In this document: positions 1,471-7,109 of the stretch, one piece after another
Position numbering within the stretch: the first letter of the stretch is position 1
How the letters are laid out: the number at the start of each line of letters is the position of its first letter
NCBI RefSeq assembly: GCF_030013595.1
Contig: NZ_CP122768.1
DNA from: Escherichia coli
GTDB taxonomy: Bacteria > Pseudomonadota > Gammaproteobacteria > Enterobacterales > Enterobacteriaceae
Direction: 5' to 3' (one strand)
Length of the DNA stretch: 64,000 nucleotides
Notes under the pieces: model-generated
Seen by the model: only the letters and a program-made list of their open reading frames with translations
Database searches by the model: none
What the model was told of the DNA's origin: nothing
Position numbers and translations under genes: made by a program

Positions 1471-1706
1471 CTGTCGTAAAAACAATTGGTTATGAATAAA
1501 TTAACTTTCAGTTTATCACACTAGCAAATCGAGATTAATAAGTCATTTAAACCATTTTTATGGTTATTTATTAGTGATATCAACTTGAGGTAAGCGTTAG
1601 TTTCGATAAGATAAACTGAGTTATTAATAGTCGAGGCAGATAATACAGTGTACCGATCTGTCTCTTTATCTACGCTAAATTGAAAGCTGGATTTAGAGGA
1701 ACCAAA

Positions 1707-3224
1707 ATGTCTGAACGAGAAACACGGGGAGCCAATGAGGCTATTGATTTTAACGATGAACTGAGAAATCGCCGCGAAAAACTGGCGGCACTACGTCAGC
1801 AAGGTGTGGCGTTTCCCAATGATTTTCGCCGCGACCATACCTCTGACCAGTTGCACGAAGAGTTTGATGCGAAGGATAACCAGGAACTGGAATCCTTAAA
1901 CATTGAAGTCTCGGTTGCTGGCCGAATGATGACCCGTCGTATCATGGGGAAAGCCTCCTTTGTAACGTTGCAGGATGTCGGTGGCCGTATTCAACTGTAC
2001 GTTGCAAGAGATAGCCTGCCAGAAGGTGTTTATAACGATCAGTTTAAAAAATGGGATCTGGGTGACATTATCGGTGCCCGCGGTACGCTGTTTAAGACGC
2101 AAACGGGTGAGCTTTCCATTCACTGTACTGAGCTGCGCCTGCTGACTAAAGCACTACGTCCTTTACCAGATAAATTCCATGGTCTGCAGGATCAGGAAGT
2201 CCGTTATCGTCAACGTTATCTGGACCTCATCGCTAACGATAAATCCCGTCAAACGTTTGTTGTCCGTTCAAAAATTCTGGCCGCTATCCGTCAGTTCATG
2301 GTCGCGCGCGGCTTTATGGAAGTAGAAACCCCGATGATGCAGGTAATTCCAGGTGGGGCATCTGCTCGCCCGTTTATTACCCATCATAACGCTCTGGATT
2401 TAGATATGTACCTGCGTATCGCGCCAGAGCTGTATCTGAAACGTCTGGTTGTAGGCGGTTTTGAACGGGTATTCGAAATCAACCGTAACTTCCGTAATGA
2501 AGGTATTTCTGTTCGCCATAATCCTGAGTTCACAATGATGGAACTCTACATGGCGTATGCGGATTACCACGATTTGATTGAACTGACAGAGTCACTGTTC
2601 CGCACCCTGGCACAAGAGGTTCTGGGTACCACTAAAGTCACTTATGGCGAGCATGTGTTTGATTTCGGCAAACCGTTTGAAAAACTCACCATGCGCGAAG
2701 CAATCAAAAAATATCGTCCAGAAACCGATATGGCCGACCTGGATAATTTTGATGCCGCTAAAGCATTAGCTGAATCTATTGGTATTACGGTAGAGAAAAG
2801 CTGGGGGCTGGGACGTATTGTCACGGAGATCTTTGATGAAGTGGCAGAAGCACATCTGATTCAGCCAACCTTTATTACGGAATATCCCGCAGAAGTGTCA
2901 CCGCTGGCGCGCCGTAATGATGTTAACCCGGAAATCACCGACCGATTTGAATTCTTCATCGGTGGTCGTGAAATCGGTAATGGTTTTAGCGAATTAAACG
3001 ACGCAGAAGATCAGGCTGAACGTTTCCAGGAACAGGTTAACGCTAAAGCTGCAGGTGACGACGAAGCCATGTTCTATGACGAAGATTACGTGACTGCGCT
3101 GGAATATGGTTTGCCACCAACCGCTGGTCTGGGTATTGGTATCGACCGAATGATTATGCTGTTTACAAACAGTCATACTATTCGCGACGTTATTCTCTTC
3201 CCGGCGATGCGCCCACAGAAATAA
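1707..3224 (+). CDS. lysU: Lysyl-tRNA synthetase, inducible isozyme
   Basis: ORF track 1680..3224 begins at an upstream TTG; the ATG at 1707 gives 505 aa starting [15 protein letters not shown], a class II aaRS. Called lysU rather than lysS from synteny with dtpC and ghoST. Confidence 0.93.
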
Positions 3225-3235
3225 TTTTCACTTTA

Positions 3236-3269
3236 ATGAACGAAGCAGTCAGGCGACTGCTTCGTTCAT
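3236..3269. terminator. 15-bp perfect inverted repeat hairpin between convergent lysU and ghoT
   Basis: atgaacgaagcagtc / loop aggc / gactgcttcgttcat read directly; no strong T-run, so function as a terminator is inferred from position. Confidence 0.4.
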
Positions 3270-3342
3270 CATTCCGCAAATCCAGTTTTGAGGAGAGACG
3301 CTTCGTTTCACGATAACCAGCGGGTCCACTCAACTACAGCTC

Positions 3343-3516
3343 CTAAAAGAGAGAAAAAAGTAATGCCACAGGCAGACTCATTGGCCAGGTTATTCCTACC
3401 AGGAATGCACTAAGTAAACGAATATGTGTTTTCTCATGTGAGATAAACCAGATAATGACAAAGGATATGTTCACACCAATCACATAAAAAATTAATATTT
3501 TAGAGAATAGTGCCAT
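3343..3516 (-). CDS. ghoT: Type V toxin GhoT, small membrane-lytic peptide (57 aa)
   Basis: Not in ORF track (under 60 aa). Hand translation of the minus strand from ATG at 3516 to TAG at 3343..3345 gives MALFSKILIFYVIGVNISFVIIWFISHEKTHIRLLSAFLVGITWPMSLPVALLFSLF; hydrophobic, directly downstream of ghoS. Confidence 0.88.
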   Translation of the reverse strand: MALFSKILIFYVIGVNISFVIIWFISHEKTHIRLLSAFLVGITWPMSLPVALLFSLF

Positions 3517-3543
3517 TTTTTATGTTCTTCTTATCCTTCCTGG

Positions 3544-3840
3544 CTACTTGTAAAACTGACGGAAATAGTCATCAACGGTCATAATGTTGAGGTCAAAGTC
3601 AATATCCGGTAAGTCTAAGCATTTAAGCCTGATTAAATCTTCGATTTCACTTGCGGCTAACGATGTCGTTATTGCGAAGGAGTTTTCATTCAATTGTCGT
3701 GGTATCCCATATTCATCAGCCACGATAGAGGAGAAATTCATATCATACATCAATGATCTTAACCTTAAGAACACTGAGGAATAAGATGATGGATAATCAA
3801 AAGAAACAACATAAGTATTGAACTTGTTTTTACCTTCCAT
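3544..3840 (-). CDS. ghoS: Type V antitoxin GhoS, endoribonuclease specific for ghoT mRNA
   Basis: ORF track 98 aa, ATG start at 3840 preceded by GGAG; sequence matches recalled GhoS/YjdK; ghoT lies 27 bp downstream on the same strand. Confidence 0.9.
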   Translation of the reverse strand: MEGKNKFNTYVVSFDYPSSYSSVFLRLRSLMYDMNFSSIVADEYGIPRQLNENSFAITTSLAASEIEDLIRLKCLDLPDIDFDLNIMTVDDYFRQFYK

Positions 3841-4066
3841 AATATGACTCCTATCAATATTGAACGCTCTGGGGACGCAAAACTTATTAACCCCGATTGA
3901 TGATTCTCATATAGGAGATATTCTTTTTTTTGCTCAGTAAAGGGGATGACTTGGGACAAAAAAACGCGCTCTCTGCCCATTCTTTGTGCATCCCCCTACC
4001 CTTCAGATGCTCACCTGCATCACACCGCGGAGAGCATGAAAAATATTGTGACTCTGTACTCTCCCA

Positions 4067-4339
4067 TCAACTGCGAATATCATCATACTCCCGCGTTTTA
4101 TCAAATTCGTGTTTCGCAAATGGGCATAGTGGGATAATTTTTCGTTTTTCCCGACGCATTTTTTCCACGACTTTCGCAACCAGCTGTTTACCAATCCCCT
4201 GCCCTTTCAGGCTTTCATCGACATCGGTATGTTCGATAATCGCTAAATTCTCTCCGGTCGGCACAAAGACAATTTCAGCGATTTGCTTGCCCTGTTCGTC
4301 ATTAATGTAAAATTTATTGTGGCCTTCGCGTATTTCCAT
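4067..4339 (-). CDS. yjdJ: Small GNAT-family acetyltransferase-like protein
   Basis: ORF track 90 aa, ATG at 4339; motif QGIGKQLV typical of the GNAT acetyl-CoA site; synteny with yjdI. Confidence 0.85.
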
Positions 4340-4350
4340 TTTACCCTCGC

Positions 4351-4581
4351 TTATTTATGACGGTATTTCAGCGCGCCGCTCGGGCACGTATCAATCACTT
4401 TAACCACAGTGGCAACGTCGACTTCATCCGGCATGATCCACGGCTTTCGTTTGAGATTAAATAACTTGCCGTTGCCACGTACGCAATTGCCAGAATGCTG
4501 ACATATCGCAGTATTGAAATAGACATCGATCTTTTCGCCGGTATAACAGCGATAACCCCCGTCCAGTAGCGCCCGATCCAT
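4351..4581 (-). CDS. yjdI: Small cysteine-rich protein of unknown function
   Basis: ORF track 76 aa, ATG at 4581; four Cys (CYTG, CQHSGNC, CPSG) suggest a metal or Fe-S site; 11 bp upstream of yjdJ, likely co-transcribed. Confidence 0.85.
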
Positions 4582-4761
4582 GACCTTCCCTCTCTCATCA
4601 GTATGATTATCGCTATAAGCATAGCCCCGGAATCTTCATACAGCACTGGCAGTTTCCGTTGCCAGAATCTCTTCCCCTATATAGCCAATCATTCTTACTC
4701 CCTTTGAATTACCCGCCTCATCAGAGATAATGCTTAAGAAATTTGTCACACAAGGAAGCTG

Positions 4762-6393
4762 ATGAGACATTCATTGCCCTACCGTATGTTACGCAAACGT
4801 CCGATGAAATTGAGTACCACTGTGATCTTAATGGTCAGCGCGGTACTGTTCTCGGTGCTATTGGTGGTGCATCTGATTTACTTCTCGCAAATCAGTGATA
4901 TGACGCGAGACGGGCTAGCCAACAAGGCGCTGGCAGTGGCGCGTACCCTCGCCGACTCGCCGGAAATCCGTCAGGGCTTGCAGAAAAAACCTCAGGAGAG
5001 CGGCATCCAGGCCATCGCGGAAGCCGTGCGCAAACGCAACGATCTGCTATTTATTGTCGTTACCGATATGCAAAGTCTTCGCTACTCGCATCCTGAAGCC
5101 CAGCGTATTGGTCAGCCATTTAAAGGTGATGACATCCTTAAAGCGCTGAATGGCGAAGAAAATGTCGCTATCAATCGCGGTTTTCTGGCGCAGGCTTTAC
5201 GCGTATTTACCCCCATCTACGATGAAAATCATAAACAAATTGGCGTGGTGGCGATCGGCCTTGAGTTAAGTCGCGTGACCCAACAGATCAATGACAGTCG
5301 CTGGAGCATTATCTGGTCGGTATTATTTGGCATGCTGGTCGGACTGATCGGCACCTGCATTCTGGTTAACGTACTGAAAAAAATCCTTTTTGGCCTGGAA
5401 CCCTACGAAATCTCCACGCTGTTTGAGCAGCGCCAGGCCATGTTGCAGTCTATCAAAGAAGGCGTCGTTGCCGTGGACGATCGCGGTGAAGTCACGCTGA
5501 TCAACGATGCCGCACAAGAATTGCTGAATTACCGTAAGTCGCAGGACGATGAGAAACTGTCGACGCTAAGCCACTCGTGGTCACAGGTGGTAGATGTCTC
5601 GGAAGTGTTACGCGACGGTACCCCGCGGCGCGACGAAGAGATTACGATTAAAGACCGGCTATTACTGATCAACACCGTTCCGGTGCGCAGTAATGGCGTT
5701 ATCATCGGTGCCATTTCAACCTTCAGGGACAAAACTGAAGTACGTAAACTGATGCAGCGACTCGATGGTCTGGTCAACTATGCTGACGCACTTCGTGAAC
5801 GATCCCACGAATTTATGAATAAATTGCACGTGATTCTCGGATTATTGCATCTGAAGAGTTATAAGCAGTTGGAAGATTACATTCTCAAAACAGCCAATAA
5901 CTATCAGGAAGAGATTGGCTCTCTGCTGGGTAAGATCAAATCTCCGGTTATCGCTGGTTTTTTAATCAGCAAGATTAACCGCGCGACCGATTTAGGCCAT
6001 ACGCTGATTTTAAACAGTGAAAGCCAGCTGCCAGACAGCGGCAGTGAAGACCAGGTCGCGACGCTGATTACCACGTTGGGAAATCTGATAGAAAACGCGC
6101 TGGAAGCATTAGGGCCGGAACCCGGAGGCGAAATTAGCGTAACATTGCACTACCGTCACGGCTGGCTGCACTGTGAAGTTAATGATGATGGACCGGGGAT
6201 CGCACCCGATAAAATCGATCACATTTTTGACAAAGGTGTCTCGACAAAAGGAAGCGAGCGAGGCGTCGGTTTAGCACTTGTCAAACAACAGGTAGAAAAT
6301 CTCGGCGGCAGCATCGCCGTGGAATCGGAACCCGGGATTTTCACACAATTTTTTGTCCAGATACCCTGGGACGGGGAGAGGTCGAACAGATGA
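4762..6393 (+). CDS. dcuS: C4-dicarboxylate sensor histidine kinase
   Basis: ORF track 543 aa, ATG start; two transmembrane segments, periplasmic sensing domain, PAS and HATPase motifs (DDGPGI); overlaps dcuR start. Confidence 0.93.
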   Translation: MRHSLPYRMLRKRPMKLSTTVILMVSAVLFSVLLVVHLIYFSQISDMTRDGLANKALAVARTLADSPEIRQGLQKKPQESGIQAIAEAVRKRNDLLFIVVTDMQSLRYSHPEAQRIGQPFKGDDILKALNGEENVAINRGFLAQALRVFTPIYDENHKQIGVVAIGLELSRVTQQINDSRWSIIWSVLFGMLVGLIGTCILVNVLKKILFGLEPYEISTLFEQRQAMLQSIKEGVVAVDDRGEVTLINDAAQELLNYRKSQDDEKLSTLSHSWSQVVDVSEVLRDGTPRRDEEITIKDRLLLINTVPVRSNGVIIGAISTFRDKTEVRKLMQRLDGLVNYADALRERSHEFMNKLHVILGLLHLKSYKQLEDYILKTANNYQEEIGSLLGKIKSPVIAGFLISKINRATDLGHTLILNSESQLPDSGSEDQVATLITTLGNLIENALEALGPEPGGEISVTLHYRHGWLHCEVNDDGPGIAPDKIDHIFDKGVSTKGSERGVGLALVKQQVENLGGSIAVESEPGIFTQFFVQIPWDGERSNR

Positions 6394-7109
6394 TCAATGT
6401 ATTAATTATCGATGACGACGCAATGGTCGCGGAGCTGAATCGCCGATACGTAGCACAAATCCCAAGCTTTCAATGCTGTGGAACAGCCTCGACGCTGGAG
6501 AAAGCCAAAGAGATTATCTTCAATAGCGATACGCCTATCGACCTGATATTGCTCGATATCTATATGCAAAAAGAGAACGGGCTCGATTTACTGCCTGTCC
6601 TGCATAACGCGCGTTGCAAAAGTGATGTGATTGTCATCTCCTCCGCAGCCGATGCGGCAACCATTAAAGATTCGCTGCATTACGGTGTCGTGGATTACCT
6701 GATCAAACCCTTCCAGGCTTCCCGCTTTGAAGAGGCGCTCACCGGCTGGCGGCAAAAGAAAATGGCGCTGGAAAAACATCAGTATTATGACCAGGCCGAG
6801 CTTGATCAGCTAATCCACGGCAGCAGCTCCAACGAGCAGGATCCTCGTCGCTTGCCAAAAGGCTTAACGCCGCAGACGTTACGCACGCTGTGCCAGTGGA
6901 TTGACGCGCATCAGGACTATGAGTTTTCAACCGACGAGCTGGCTAACGAGGTTAACATTTCGCGTGTTTCCTGCCGTAAATACCTCATCTGGCTGGTCAA
7001 CTGCCACATCTTGTTCACCAGTATCCATTATGGCGTCACGGGGCGTCCGGTTTACCGTTACCGTATTCAGGCAGAACACTACTCACTGCTGAAACAATAT
7101 TGCCAATAA
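6390..7109 (+). CDS. dcuR: C4-dicarboxylate response regulator
   Basis: ORF track 239 aa; receiver domain (LIIDDD, LLDIYM) plus C-terminal DNA-binding domain; ATGA overlap with dcuS stop. Confidence 0.93.
   Translation: MINVLIIDDDAMVAELNRRYVAQIPSFQCCGTASTLEKAKEIIFNSDTPIDLILLDIYMQKENGLDLLPVLHNARCKSDVIVISSAADAATIKDSLHYGVVDYLIKPFQASRFEEALTGWRQKKMALEKHQYYDQAELDQLIHGSSSNEQDPRRLPKGLTPQTLRTLCQWIDAHQDYEFSTDELANEVNISRVSCRKYLIWLVNCHILFTSIHYGVTGRPVYRYRIQAEHYSLLKQYCQ

Follow-up and report, generated by a model that had tools for sequence, protein, structure and literature searches.

The gene pair yjdI-yjdJ, which lies in a 64,000-nt stretch of the Escherichia coli chromosome (contig NZ_CP122768.1 of assembly GCF_030013595.1; the whole stretch is called the window in what follows), combines a predicted iron–sulfur (Fe-S) protein with a Gcn5-related N-acetyltransferase (GNAT) of minimal size, and the closest described systems resemble either one of its halves or the combination. 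For YjdI, such a relative is the C-terminal Fer4_19 domain (formerly DUF1271) of the Syntrophomonas wolfei class E flavodiiron protein, in which electron paramagnetic resonance and resonance Raman spectroscopy revealed a [3Fe-4S]1+/0 cluster with a potential of +70 mV (10.1101/2024.04.03.587993). This domain shares with YjdI both the Pfam family and the motif that the same preprint states for the family, C-x-H-x3-C...C-P; its AlphaFold model superposes on that of YjdI with a root-mean-square deviation (rmsd) of 1.5 Å, and the two have similar UV-visible spectra according to the authors (10.1101/2024.04.03.587993). It differs in being the fused electron-transfer centre of an O2 reductase with a demonstrated [3Fe-4S] cluster, whereas YjdI is free-standing, is paired with a GNAT and is known here from its sequence and model. 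Type 7 CDGSH proteins likewise combine a Fer4_19/DUF1271 module with another small domain (PMC3174974, PMC5859297), although there the partner is a CDGSH [2Fe-2S] domain instead of an acyl-coenzyme A (acyl-CoA) enzyme, and the Fer4_19 part is more distant from YjdI.

For YjdJ, the comparison is with other members of COG2388/PF14542, namely At1g77540 of Arabidopsis, the S. aureus homologue (1R57/2H5M) and human NATD1, which like YjdJ have about 90–100 residues and a conserved Cys and are without the acceptor arm of larger GNATs. The 2H5M entry is an acetyl-CoA complex. At1g77540 is described as a minimal acetyltransferase of COG2388 that acts on histones H3 and H4 in vitro and has human NATD1 as its orthologue (PMC11075575). 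No Fe-S partner is reported for these proteins in the literature found, whereas members of the YjdJ subgroup occur coupled with Fer4_19 or fused to it. To our knowledge, Elp3 is the only well-studied unit that brings together an Fe-S centre and an acetyl-CoA-binding GNAT; it differs from YjdIJ in its radical S-adenosylmethionine (SAM) domain with CxxxCxxC and SAM, its full-size GNAT and its tRNA substrate, and the likeness gives no evidence of radical chemistry in YjdIJ.

Compared with these systems, yjdI and yjdJ very probably form one functional unit, an Fe-S protein plus a minimal GNAT, encoded by a self-contained operon that is unrelated to the adjacent toxin–antitoxin genes ghoST. Both are genuine genes rather than chance open reading frames (ORFs), as their Pfam matches show: YjdI matches Fer4_19 (PF06902) with an E-value of 4.8e-30 and 103.8 bits at a cut-off of 24, residues 13–76 covering the entire profile (1–64 of 64), and YjdJ matches Acetyltransf_CG (PF14542) with an E-value of 9.7e-25 and 87 bits at a cut-off of 30.

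The unit is carried first of all by conserved adjacency. A scan of GTDB with one genome per species, seeded with a tight alignment of 10 YjdI sequences (a diverse alignment of 35 was too variable to seed a genome scan), found a YjdI relative in 446 species; the species-locus counts given here refer to the best 80 of these 446 matches, all of them Enterobacteriaceae, while more distant contexts were sampled protein by protein. In all 80 loci, which come from about 20 genera (Escherichia, Klebsiella, Raoultella, Citrobacter, Enterobacter, Kluyvera, Kosakonia, Leclercia, Lelliottia, Trabulsiella, Yokenella, Pluralibacter and others), yjdJ lies directly 3′ of yjdI. The spacer measures 10–12 nt in 79 of 87 loci, with short overlaps or gaps of 1–4 nt taking its place in Firmicutes. 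Outside Proteobacteria, the pair was seen in Enterococcus (with a 4-bp overlap), in Listeria fleischmannii and in two further taxa. In L. fleischmannii (locus positions 4001–4549), YjdI is 75% identical to that of E. coli, an unusually high value for two phyla that suggests that the cassette was transferred horizontally; there the pair sits between a gene for a metallo-beta-lactamase (MBL)-fold protein and ltrA, with a glyoxalase gene nearby. Plasmid records that matched were mostly chromosomal ones with a wrong label, and they gave no hint of a mobile cassette.

The second line of evidence is natural fusion. Among the best 150 representatives of YjdI relatives (50%-identity clusters), seven are single polypeptides with Fer4_19 at the N terminus and Acetyltransf_CG at the C terminus, and a profile search for such fusions retrieved well over a hundred more. 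The order Fer4_19 then GNAT, which is also the gene order, holds in 123 of the 125 fusions retrieved, with linkers of 1–23 residues. The fusions come from Firmicutes and Bacteroidota, including Proteiniclasticum, Sporosarcina, Psychrobacillus, Paenibacillus, Ruminococcus, Lachnospiraceae and, for Bacteroidota, Sungkyunkwania. In the sampled loci, the fused genes stand alone in unrelated neighbourhoods, and no recurrent third gene was seen beside them. The pairing that the earlier note had picked out from one locus is thus genuine, given the 80/80 adjacency and the fusions. A gene for an HxlR-family regulator lies directly upstream of the fused gene on a Ruminococcus contig (locus positions 3577–4513) and another lies two genes from the pair in Enterococcus (locus positions 5725–6093), two cases that are too few to interpret. 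The N-terminal helix and GY(R/K)xY motif of YjdI were considered as a mark of GNAT pairing and dropped, since 76 of 124 fused proteins are without the motif.

The metal site of YjdI differs from what a single sequence suggests. The E. coli protein has cysteines at positions 12, 27, 33 and 66 and displays the family motif as C27-Q-H29-S-G-N-C33 ... C66-P67. An exhaustive HMMER search with YjdI yielded 1140 relatives at E ≤ 1e-3, and in an alignment of the E. coli sequence with 119 representatives of 50%-identity clusters C27, H29, C33, C66 and P67 show practically no variation. At position 12, a Cys is found in the E. coli sequence only, the commonest residues elsewhere being K, T and A, with E also found; this position is also variable among close enterobacterial orthologues (C 43, V 21, A 21, L 10) and falls outside the Pfam domain. 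The same picture emerges from the 126 paired or fused Fer4_19–GNAT sequences used for residue counts, in which C27 is kept in 125, H29 in 118, and C33, C66 and P67 in 125 each, and position 12 is never conserved. Residue 30, the place of the middle Cys in CxxCxxC ferredoxins, is Ser in E. coli and Ala or Ser in 121 of 126, so that YjdI departs from the four-Cys CxxCxxC...CP ligand set of canonical [4Fe-4S] ferredoxins. The conserved ligand set thus appears to be three cysteines (C27, C33 and C66) with H29 beside them, C12 being specific to the Escherichia lineage. Because the position of the fourth Cys is occupied by Ser or Ala, the cluster is most likely [3Fe-4S], or else a labile or convertible [4Fe-4S], and the RefSeq name ‘4Fe-4S mono-cluster protein’ is not supported by ligand conservation.

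Four spaced cysteines as a possible Fe-S or zinc site had been the earlier proposal. A metal cluster of the Fe-S type indeed seems right, and zinc is unlikely in view of the Fer4_19 membership of YjdI, the ferredoxin-like fold of its model and the [3Fe-4S] cluster bound by a homologous domain; what does not hold is a site made of four cysteines. The fold comes from a structure prediction of the kind suggested together with that proposal: the AlphaFold2 (AF2) model of YjdI reached a predicted local distance difference test (pLDDT) score of 89.9 and a predicted template modelling (pTM) score of 0.78, and the top eight Foldseek matches in the PDB were all small ferredoxins, with probabilities of 0.91–1.0, template modelling (TM) scores of 0.53–0.67 and weak E-values of 0.03–0.25. 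The matches 1FXR, 1VJW, 1IQZ, 4OV1, 1SIZ, 2Z8Q and 8AMP, with probabilities of 0.93–1.0, are all single-cluster proteins; by profile, the match to D. gigas ferredoxin (Fd) II (1F2G) was weak (E 0.097). Like YjdI, the single-cluster ferredoxins D. africanus Fd I (1FXR), T. maritima (1VJW), P. furiosus (1SIZ), M. tuberculosis Fdx (8AMP) and D. gigas Fd II have the Cys...Cys...CysPro layout. They share only 12–24% identity with it, however, and YjdI has an extra N-terminal helix and strand, Ser or Ala at the canonical fourth-ligand position and a conserved His one residue earlier. Their partners are P450s or oxidoreductases, whereas that of YjdI is a GNAT.

As for the conserved His, mutation of the motif His in the S. 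wolfei domain left the UV-visible spectrum unchanged (10.1101/2024.04.03.587993). In the YjdI orthologue of an Enterococcus sp. (locus positions 3001–3273), Arg replaces the near-invariant H29 (CIRSGNC), and six fused proteins have Lys there; both substitutions agree with that result. Basic residues are conserved at R/K11, R45 and K/R46. Three proteins, of the type 7 CDGSH class, carry distant Fer4_19 domains fused to one or two CDGSH [2Fe-2S] domains, and since fusions to CDGSH, to GNAT and to the flavodiiron protein all exist, Fer4_19 has been recruited to at least three partners.

YjdJ had been called GNAT-like and much shorter than typical acetyltransferases, a description that its PF14542 match, its 90 residues and its reduction to the core bear out. 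PF00583 aligns with YjdJ over profile positions 31–91 of 116 only, from which it follows that the N-terminal β1-α1-α2 arm and the C-terminal β6-β7 strands of the complete GNAT fold are missing. This truncation defines the minimal GNAT subfamily PF14542/COG2388. The YjdJ-type fold, β-β-β-α-β-α in the secondary structure of a modelled natural fusion, equals β2–β4, α3, β5 and α4, the core that binds acetyl-CoA, and after β4 there is a loop of the CoA-pyrophosphate type (Q/R-x-x-G-x-G/A), reading K45-G-Q-G-I-G50 with Lys in place of Q/R in E. coli and R-G-K-G-I-A in one natural fusion. With the β4-α3-β5-α4 core and the K-G-x-G-x-G loop present, the possibility raised at the outset that YjdJ might lack an acetyl-CoA fold has not materialised. 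By sequence comparison, then, the CoA-binding half appears intact and the acceptor half, i.e. the parts that build the acceptor site in ordinary GNATs, appears to be missing.

Experimental structures are consistent with this assignment. Crystal structure 5I0C is that of E. coli YjdJ, one residue different from the window sequence, and the GNAT half of the modelled fusion superposes on it with a TM score of 0.97 and an rmsd of 0.8 Å. The S. aureus entry 1R57 matches YjdJ at E 1.6e-19, and At1g77540 (1XMT/2EVN) is reached by profile at E 3e-3; the fold, too, assigns them to one family. Residue counts in the GNAT half of the 126 paired or fused sequences are 121 for H37, 122 for T38, 123 for G46 and 124 for C72.

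The coordinates of the pair and its surroundings are collected in Table 1. The layout first reported, a 76-residue and a 90-residue product encoded 11 nt apart beside ghoST, agrees exactly with the ORF list, and RefSeq annotates this region of the E. coli chromosome as ghoT, ghoS, yjdJ, yjdI and dcuS. The short spacer with its ribosome-binding site indicates that the genes form an operon whose translation is tight or coupled.

Table 1. Features of the yjdI-yjdJ region, in window positions.
Feature	Positions	Strand	Basis or remark
yjdI CDS, 76 aa, ATG start	4351-4581	minus	ORF list and Pfam PF06902 (Fer4_19)
yjdI key codon, C27	4501-4503	minus	
yjdI key codon, H29	4495-4497	minus	
yjdI key codon, C33	4483-4485	minus	
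yjdI key codon, C66	4384-4386	minus	
yjdI key codon, P67	4381-4383	minus	
yjdI codon of non-conserved C12	4546-4548	minus	
yjdJ CDS, 90 aa, ATG start	4067-4339	minus	ORF list and Pfam PF14542 (Acetyltransf_CG); COG2388
yjdJ codon of invariant C72	4124-4126	minus	
yjdI-yjdJ intercistronic spacer, 11 nt, GCGAGGGTAAA	4340-4350	minus	carries yjdJ ribosome-binding site, Shine-Dalgarno-like GAGGG
Shine-Dalgarno-like GGGAAGG of yjdI	4584-4590	minus	3-9 nt 5′ of yjdI ATG, read from sequence
Putative sigma-S-type extended -10 element, GCTATGCTTAT	4615-4625	minus	10/11 match to KCTAYRCTTAA
ghoS	3544-3840	minus	directly downstream of yjdJ, gap 226 bp
ghoT	3343-3516	minus	downstream of ghoS
lysU	1680-3224	plus	flanks region
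dcuS-dcuR	4762-7109	plus	flanks region

Within the species, the pair is core: it is present in 5307 of 5426 complete E. coli genomes, and the 1.5-kb stretch around it is 100% identical to NZ_CM149870 and matches 5414 of the 5426. A yjdIJ query found 6045 places in 5395 records, so that some genomes carry extra yjdIJ fragments. In strain EC2001 (NZ_CP133811.1, 4416087–4416150), the sole match is 64 bp of the yjdI 5′ end (query 452–515), annotated under ‘hypothetical protein’, and in Escherichia sp. MOD1-EC7003 (locus positions 6229–6511) the 5′ end of yjdJ seems damaged, the match beginning about nine residues in and the expected start codon being absent. An Rfam search of window positions 3000–5000 found nothing, and an NCBIfam search gave sub-threshold matches only. 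Both genes had been regarded as uncharacterised, which is only partly true: they are catalogued E. coli genes whose families, as well as the structure of YjdJ, are already in databases, and one preprint cites a PhD thesis for the spectroscopic characterisation of E. coli YjdI (10.1101/2024.04.03.587993).

Regarding regulation, the region upstream of yjdI contains a putative promoter of the sigma-S type. The extended −10 consensus of this class is KCTAYRCTTAA (PMC5650638), and the upstream motif has its characteristics, namely the extended −10, the C at −13 and a weak or absent −35 element; the C of CTATGCT (4624–4618) in GCTATGCTTAT lies 43 nt upstream of the yjdI start codon. Of 79 Enterobacteriaceae loci, 66 have CTATG[C/A]T between −60 and −30, where shuffling leads one to expect 0.3, while the bases around it, including the −35 region, are not conserved and the upstream gene differs between loci. 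A consensus scan found no convincing sigma-70 promoter. In E. coli O157, yjdI and yjdJ rise at entry into stationary phase (PMC2241611), and in L. monocytogenes the YjdI- and YjdJ-like genes lmo0133-lmo0134 form a sigma-B-dependent operon (PMC2813243). Taken together, the −10 element, the rise in O157 on entering stationary phase and the control of the Listeria genes by sigma-B point to membership of yjdIJ in the general stress response in both phyla.

From these elements a mechanism can be sketched. YjdI and YjdJ would act as a complex, expressed within the general stress or stationary-phase response, from a sigma-S-type promoter in enterobacteria and under sigma-B in Listeria. YjdJ would take an acyl group from acetyl-CoA, possibly as a thioester on Cys72, and the Fe-S partner may gate or target the transfer according to the state of its cluster, which could change upon oxidation, iron limitation or damage by nitric oxide (NO). 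Since no conserved third gene accompanies the unit, its acceptor is probably a molecule that cells have everywhere and not one that belongs to a particular pathway. As a whole, this account of a two-gene stress unit whose Fe-S partner gates or targets a minimal GNAT is, on balance, probable in our view, while the specific gating or targeting step is a tentative suggestion and somewhat doubtful when judged by itself.

Several observations weigh against this account. The coupling of Fer4_19 to GNAT is not universal: Trichococcus has a YjdI of 60% identity and no yjdJ nearby, and Fer4_19 proteins further removed from YjdI stand by themselves or carry CDGSH domains in fusion. PF14542 also includes the Staphylococcus and Arabidopsis members, which might work without a Fer4_19 partner. 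The AF2 model of a natural fusion, built from a paired alignment of 28 sequences, has well-predicted domains (pLDDT 90.6) and a pTM of only 0.55, and no defined packing between the domains is predicted in it. Overexpression of YjdJ alone in E. coli produced no new acetyl-lysine bands (PMC6199490). Finally, the complex and its enzymatic activity are predictions, and the putative promoter is assigned by a sequence motif.

The absence of new acetyl-lysine bands can also be taken as a point for a different chemistry, in which YjdI is an ordinary electron-transfer ferredoxin and YjdJ is not an acetyltransferase at all but a redox enzyme that binds CoA or acyl-CoA and works through the Cys72 thiol, for instance by reducing a Cys-S-S-CoA mixed disulfide or protein CoAlation, or by reductive acyl chemistry. 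The ferredoxin-like fold of YjdI, the electron transfer for which the flavodiiron protein of S. wolfei uses its Fer4_19 centre and the invariance of Cys72 all speak for it, as do the genes of redox or electrophile metabolism near some copies (HxlR, flavin reductase, glyoxalase/MBL). These neighbours are inconsistently present, however, and the sole potential measured for a Fer4_19 domain is high (+70 mV), which would make a poor disulfide reductant. Moreover, His37-Thr38 and the CoA loop are kept as in catalytic GNATs, and the family member At1g77540 transfers acetyl in vitro, as cited in PMC11075575. We consider a redox role for the pair improbable.

Even less probable is that YjdI is the substrate, with YjdJ acetylating its N terminus or a lysine and thereby controlling the binding or stability of the cluster. 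In its favour are the coupling by operon and by fusion, the lack of an obvious small-molecule pocket in the minimal GNAT and the conserved basic residues R/K11, R45 and K/R46. The Pfam family note suggests a macromolecular acceptor. Yet in more than 120 protein clusters the enzyme would then be permanently and covalently joined to its own substrate, a one-shot chemistry that is unusual, and AF2 leaves the two domains undocked. In addition, an acetylated band of about 8 kDa was not reported in PMC6199490, though YjdI was not co-overexpressed there.

That the pair might itself be a GNAT-type toxin–antitoxin or defence module, which would explain its position beside ghoST, is very improbable and largely refuted. 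The arrangement does recall TacA-TacT and AtaR-AtaT, where a short spacer likewise separates a small first gene from a GNAT gene downstream of it, and the pair adjoins a bona fide toxin–antitoxin pair. The TacAT, AtaRT and KacAT toxins are full-length GNATs of about 160–175 residues that are encoded with DNA-binding antitoxins in tight operons, the small gene preceding the GNAT. YjdJ has half the size of a GNAT toxin and lacks the acceptor arm, and YjdI is a ferredoxin-like Fe-S protein by prediction rather than a DNA-binding antitoxin. Overexpressed YjdJ was not growth-inhibiting, being absent from the four GNATs with that effect (PMC6199490). A PADLOC search of the pair gave no match, and a pair that is core in E. 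coli (5307/5426 genomes) and occurs across Enterobacteriaceae hardly behaves like such a module. Stable fusions of antitoxin and toxin would also be self-defeating, and type II systems with GNAT toxins are not known to be fused, yet 123 Fer4_19–GNAT fusions were found; with neither a full-length toxic GNAT nor a DNA-binding antitoxin, yjdIJ falls outside that class.

The functional link to ghoST that the earlier note had thought conceivable was open to a co-occurrence analysis, and this gave a clear answer. Both ghoS and ghoT occur in only 4 of the 80 species loci, all of them Escherichia; ghoST is absent within the 6-kb flanks of all 75 non-Escherichia loci and of one E. coli lineage (strain E69), and the Firmicute loci likewise do without it, as do the pairs of the two further taxa. 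Strain E69 keeps dcuSR-yjdIJ, but the next 5.7 kb downstream contain no ghoST and no lysU. The pair of Klebsiella pneumoniae lies between genes that, judged by their sequences, are mdtN/ytcA-like and fimK/fimH-like. Because both pairs are core in E. coli (ghoST in 5272 of 5426 genomes) and ghoST is missing elsewhere, ghoST looks like an Escherichia-specific insertion between yjdJ and lysU. On the other side of the locus, several Enterobacter and Lelliottia species have a DcuS/DcuR-like two-component pair (27–32% identity) upstream of yjdI, at locus positions of about 3500–5870, which is placed and oriented just as dcuSR is in E. coli. Between yjdJ and ghoS, a consensus scan detected no terminator, and the RNA fold of this spacer was not significant (z −1.4). 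A tie of yjdIJ to the type V toxin–antitoxin ghoST, for which the shared strand, the 226-bp gap without a detected terminator-like site and the near-universal presence of both pairs in E. coli may be cited, is thus refuted at the level of co-occurrence and has next to no probability left, given the 4/80 loci, the absence from E69, from 75 non-Escherichia species and from Firmicutes, and the wholly different Klebsiella context.

With the tempting association with ghoST removed, the metal site corrected and the evidence from fusions being strong, the reading of yjdI-yjdJ as an Fe-S protein and a minimal GNAT working as one unit gains a sharper outline, even though nothing about it is new at the sequence level. 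The family of the orphan GNAT YjdJ extends to plants and to human NATD1, and YjdJ has an obligatory-looking Fe-S partner, judging from their conserved adjacency in different phyla and from natural fusions, of which there are more than 120. The published acetylation screen, in which YjdJ was expressed alone in aerated cells, would miss an activity that depends on the partner and is sensitive to oxygen. It is conceivable, if rather unlikely, that the pair and its single-chain fusions are an unrecognised sensor-enzyme in which the oxidation or integrity state of a dedicated three-Cys Fe-S module switches the activity or target of a minimal acetyl-CoA transferase. If true, such a sensor-enzyme would, within the general stress response, link acetylation directly to redox, iron or NO stress, and it would offer a first way into the function of the orphan COG2388/NATD1 family, whose members extend to humans.

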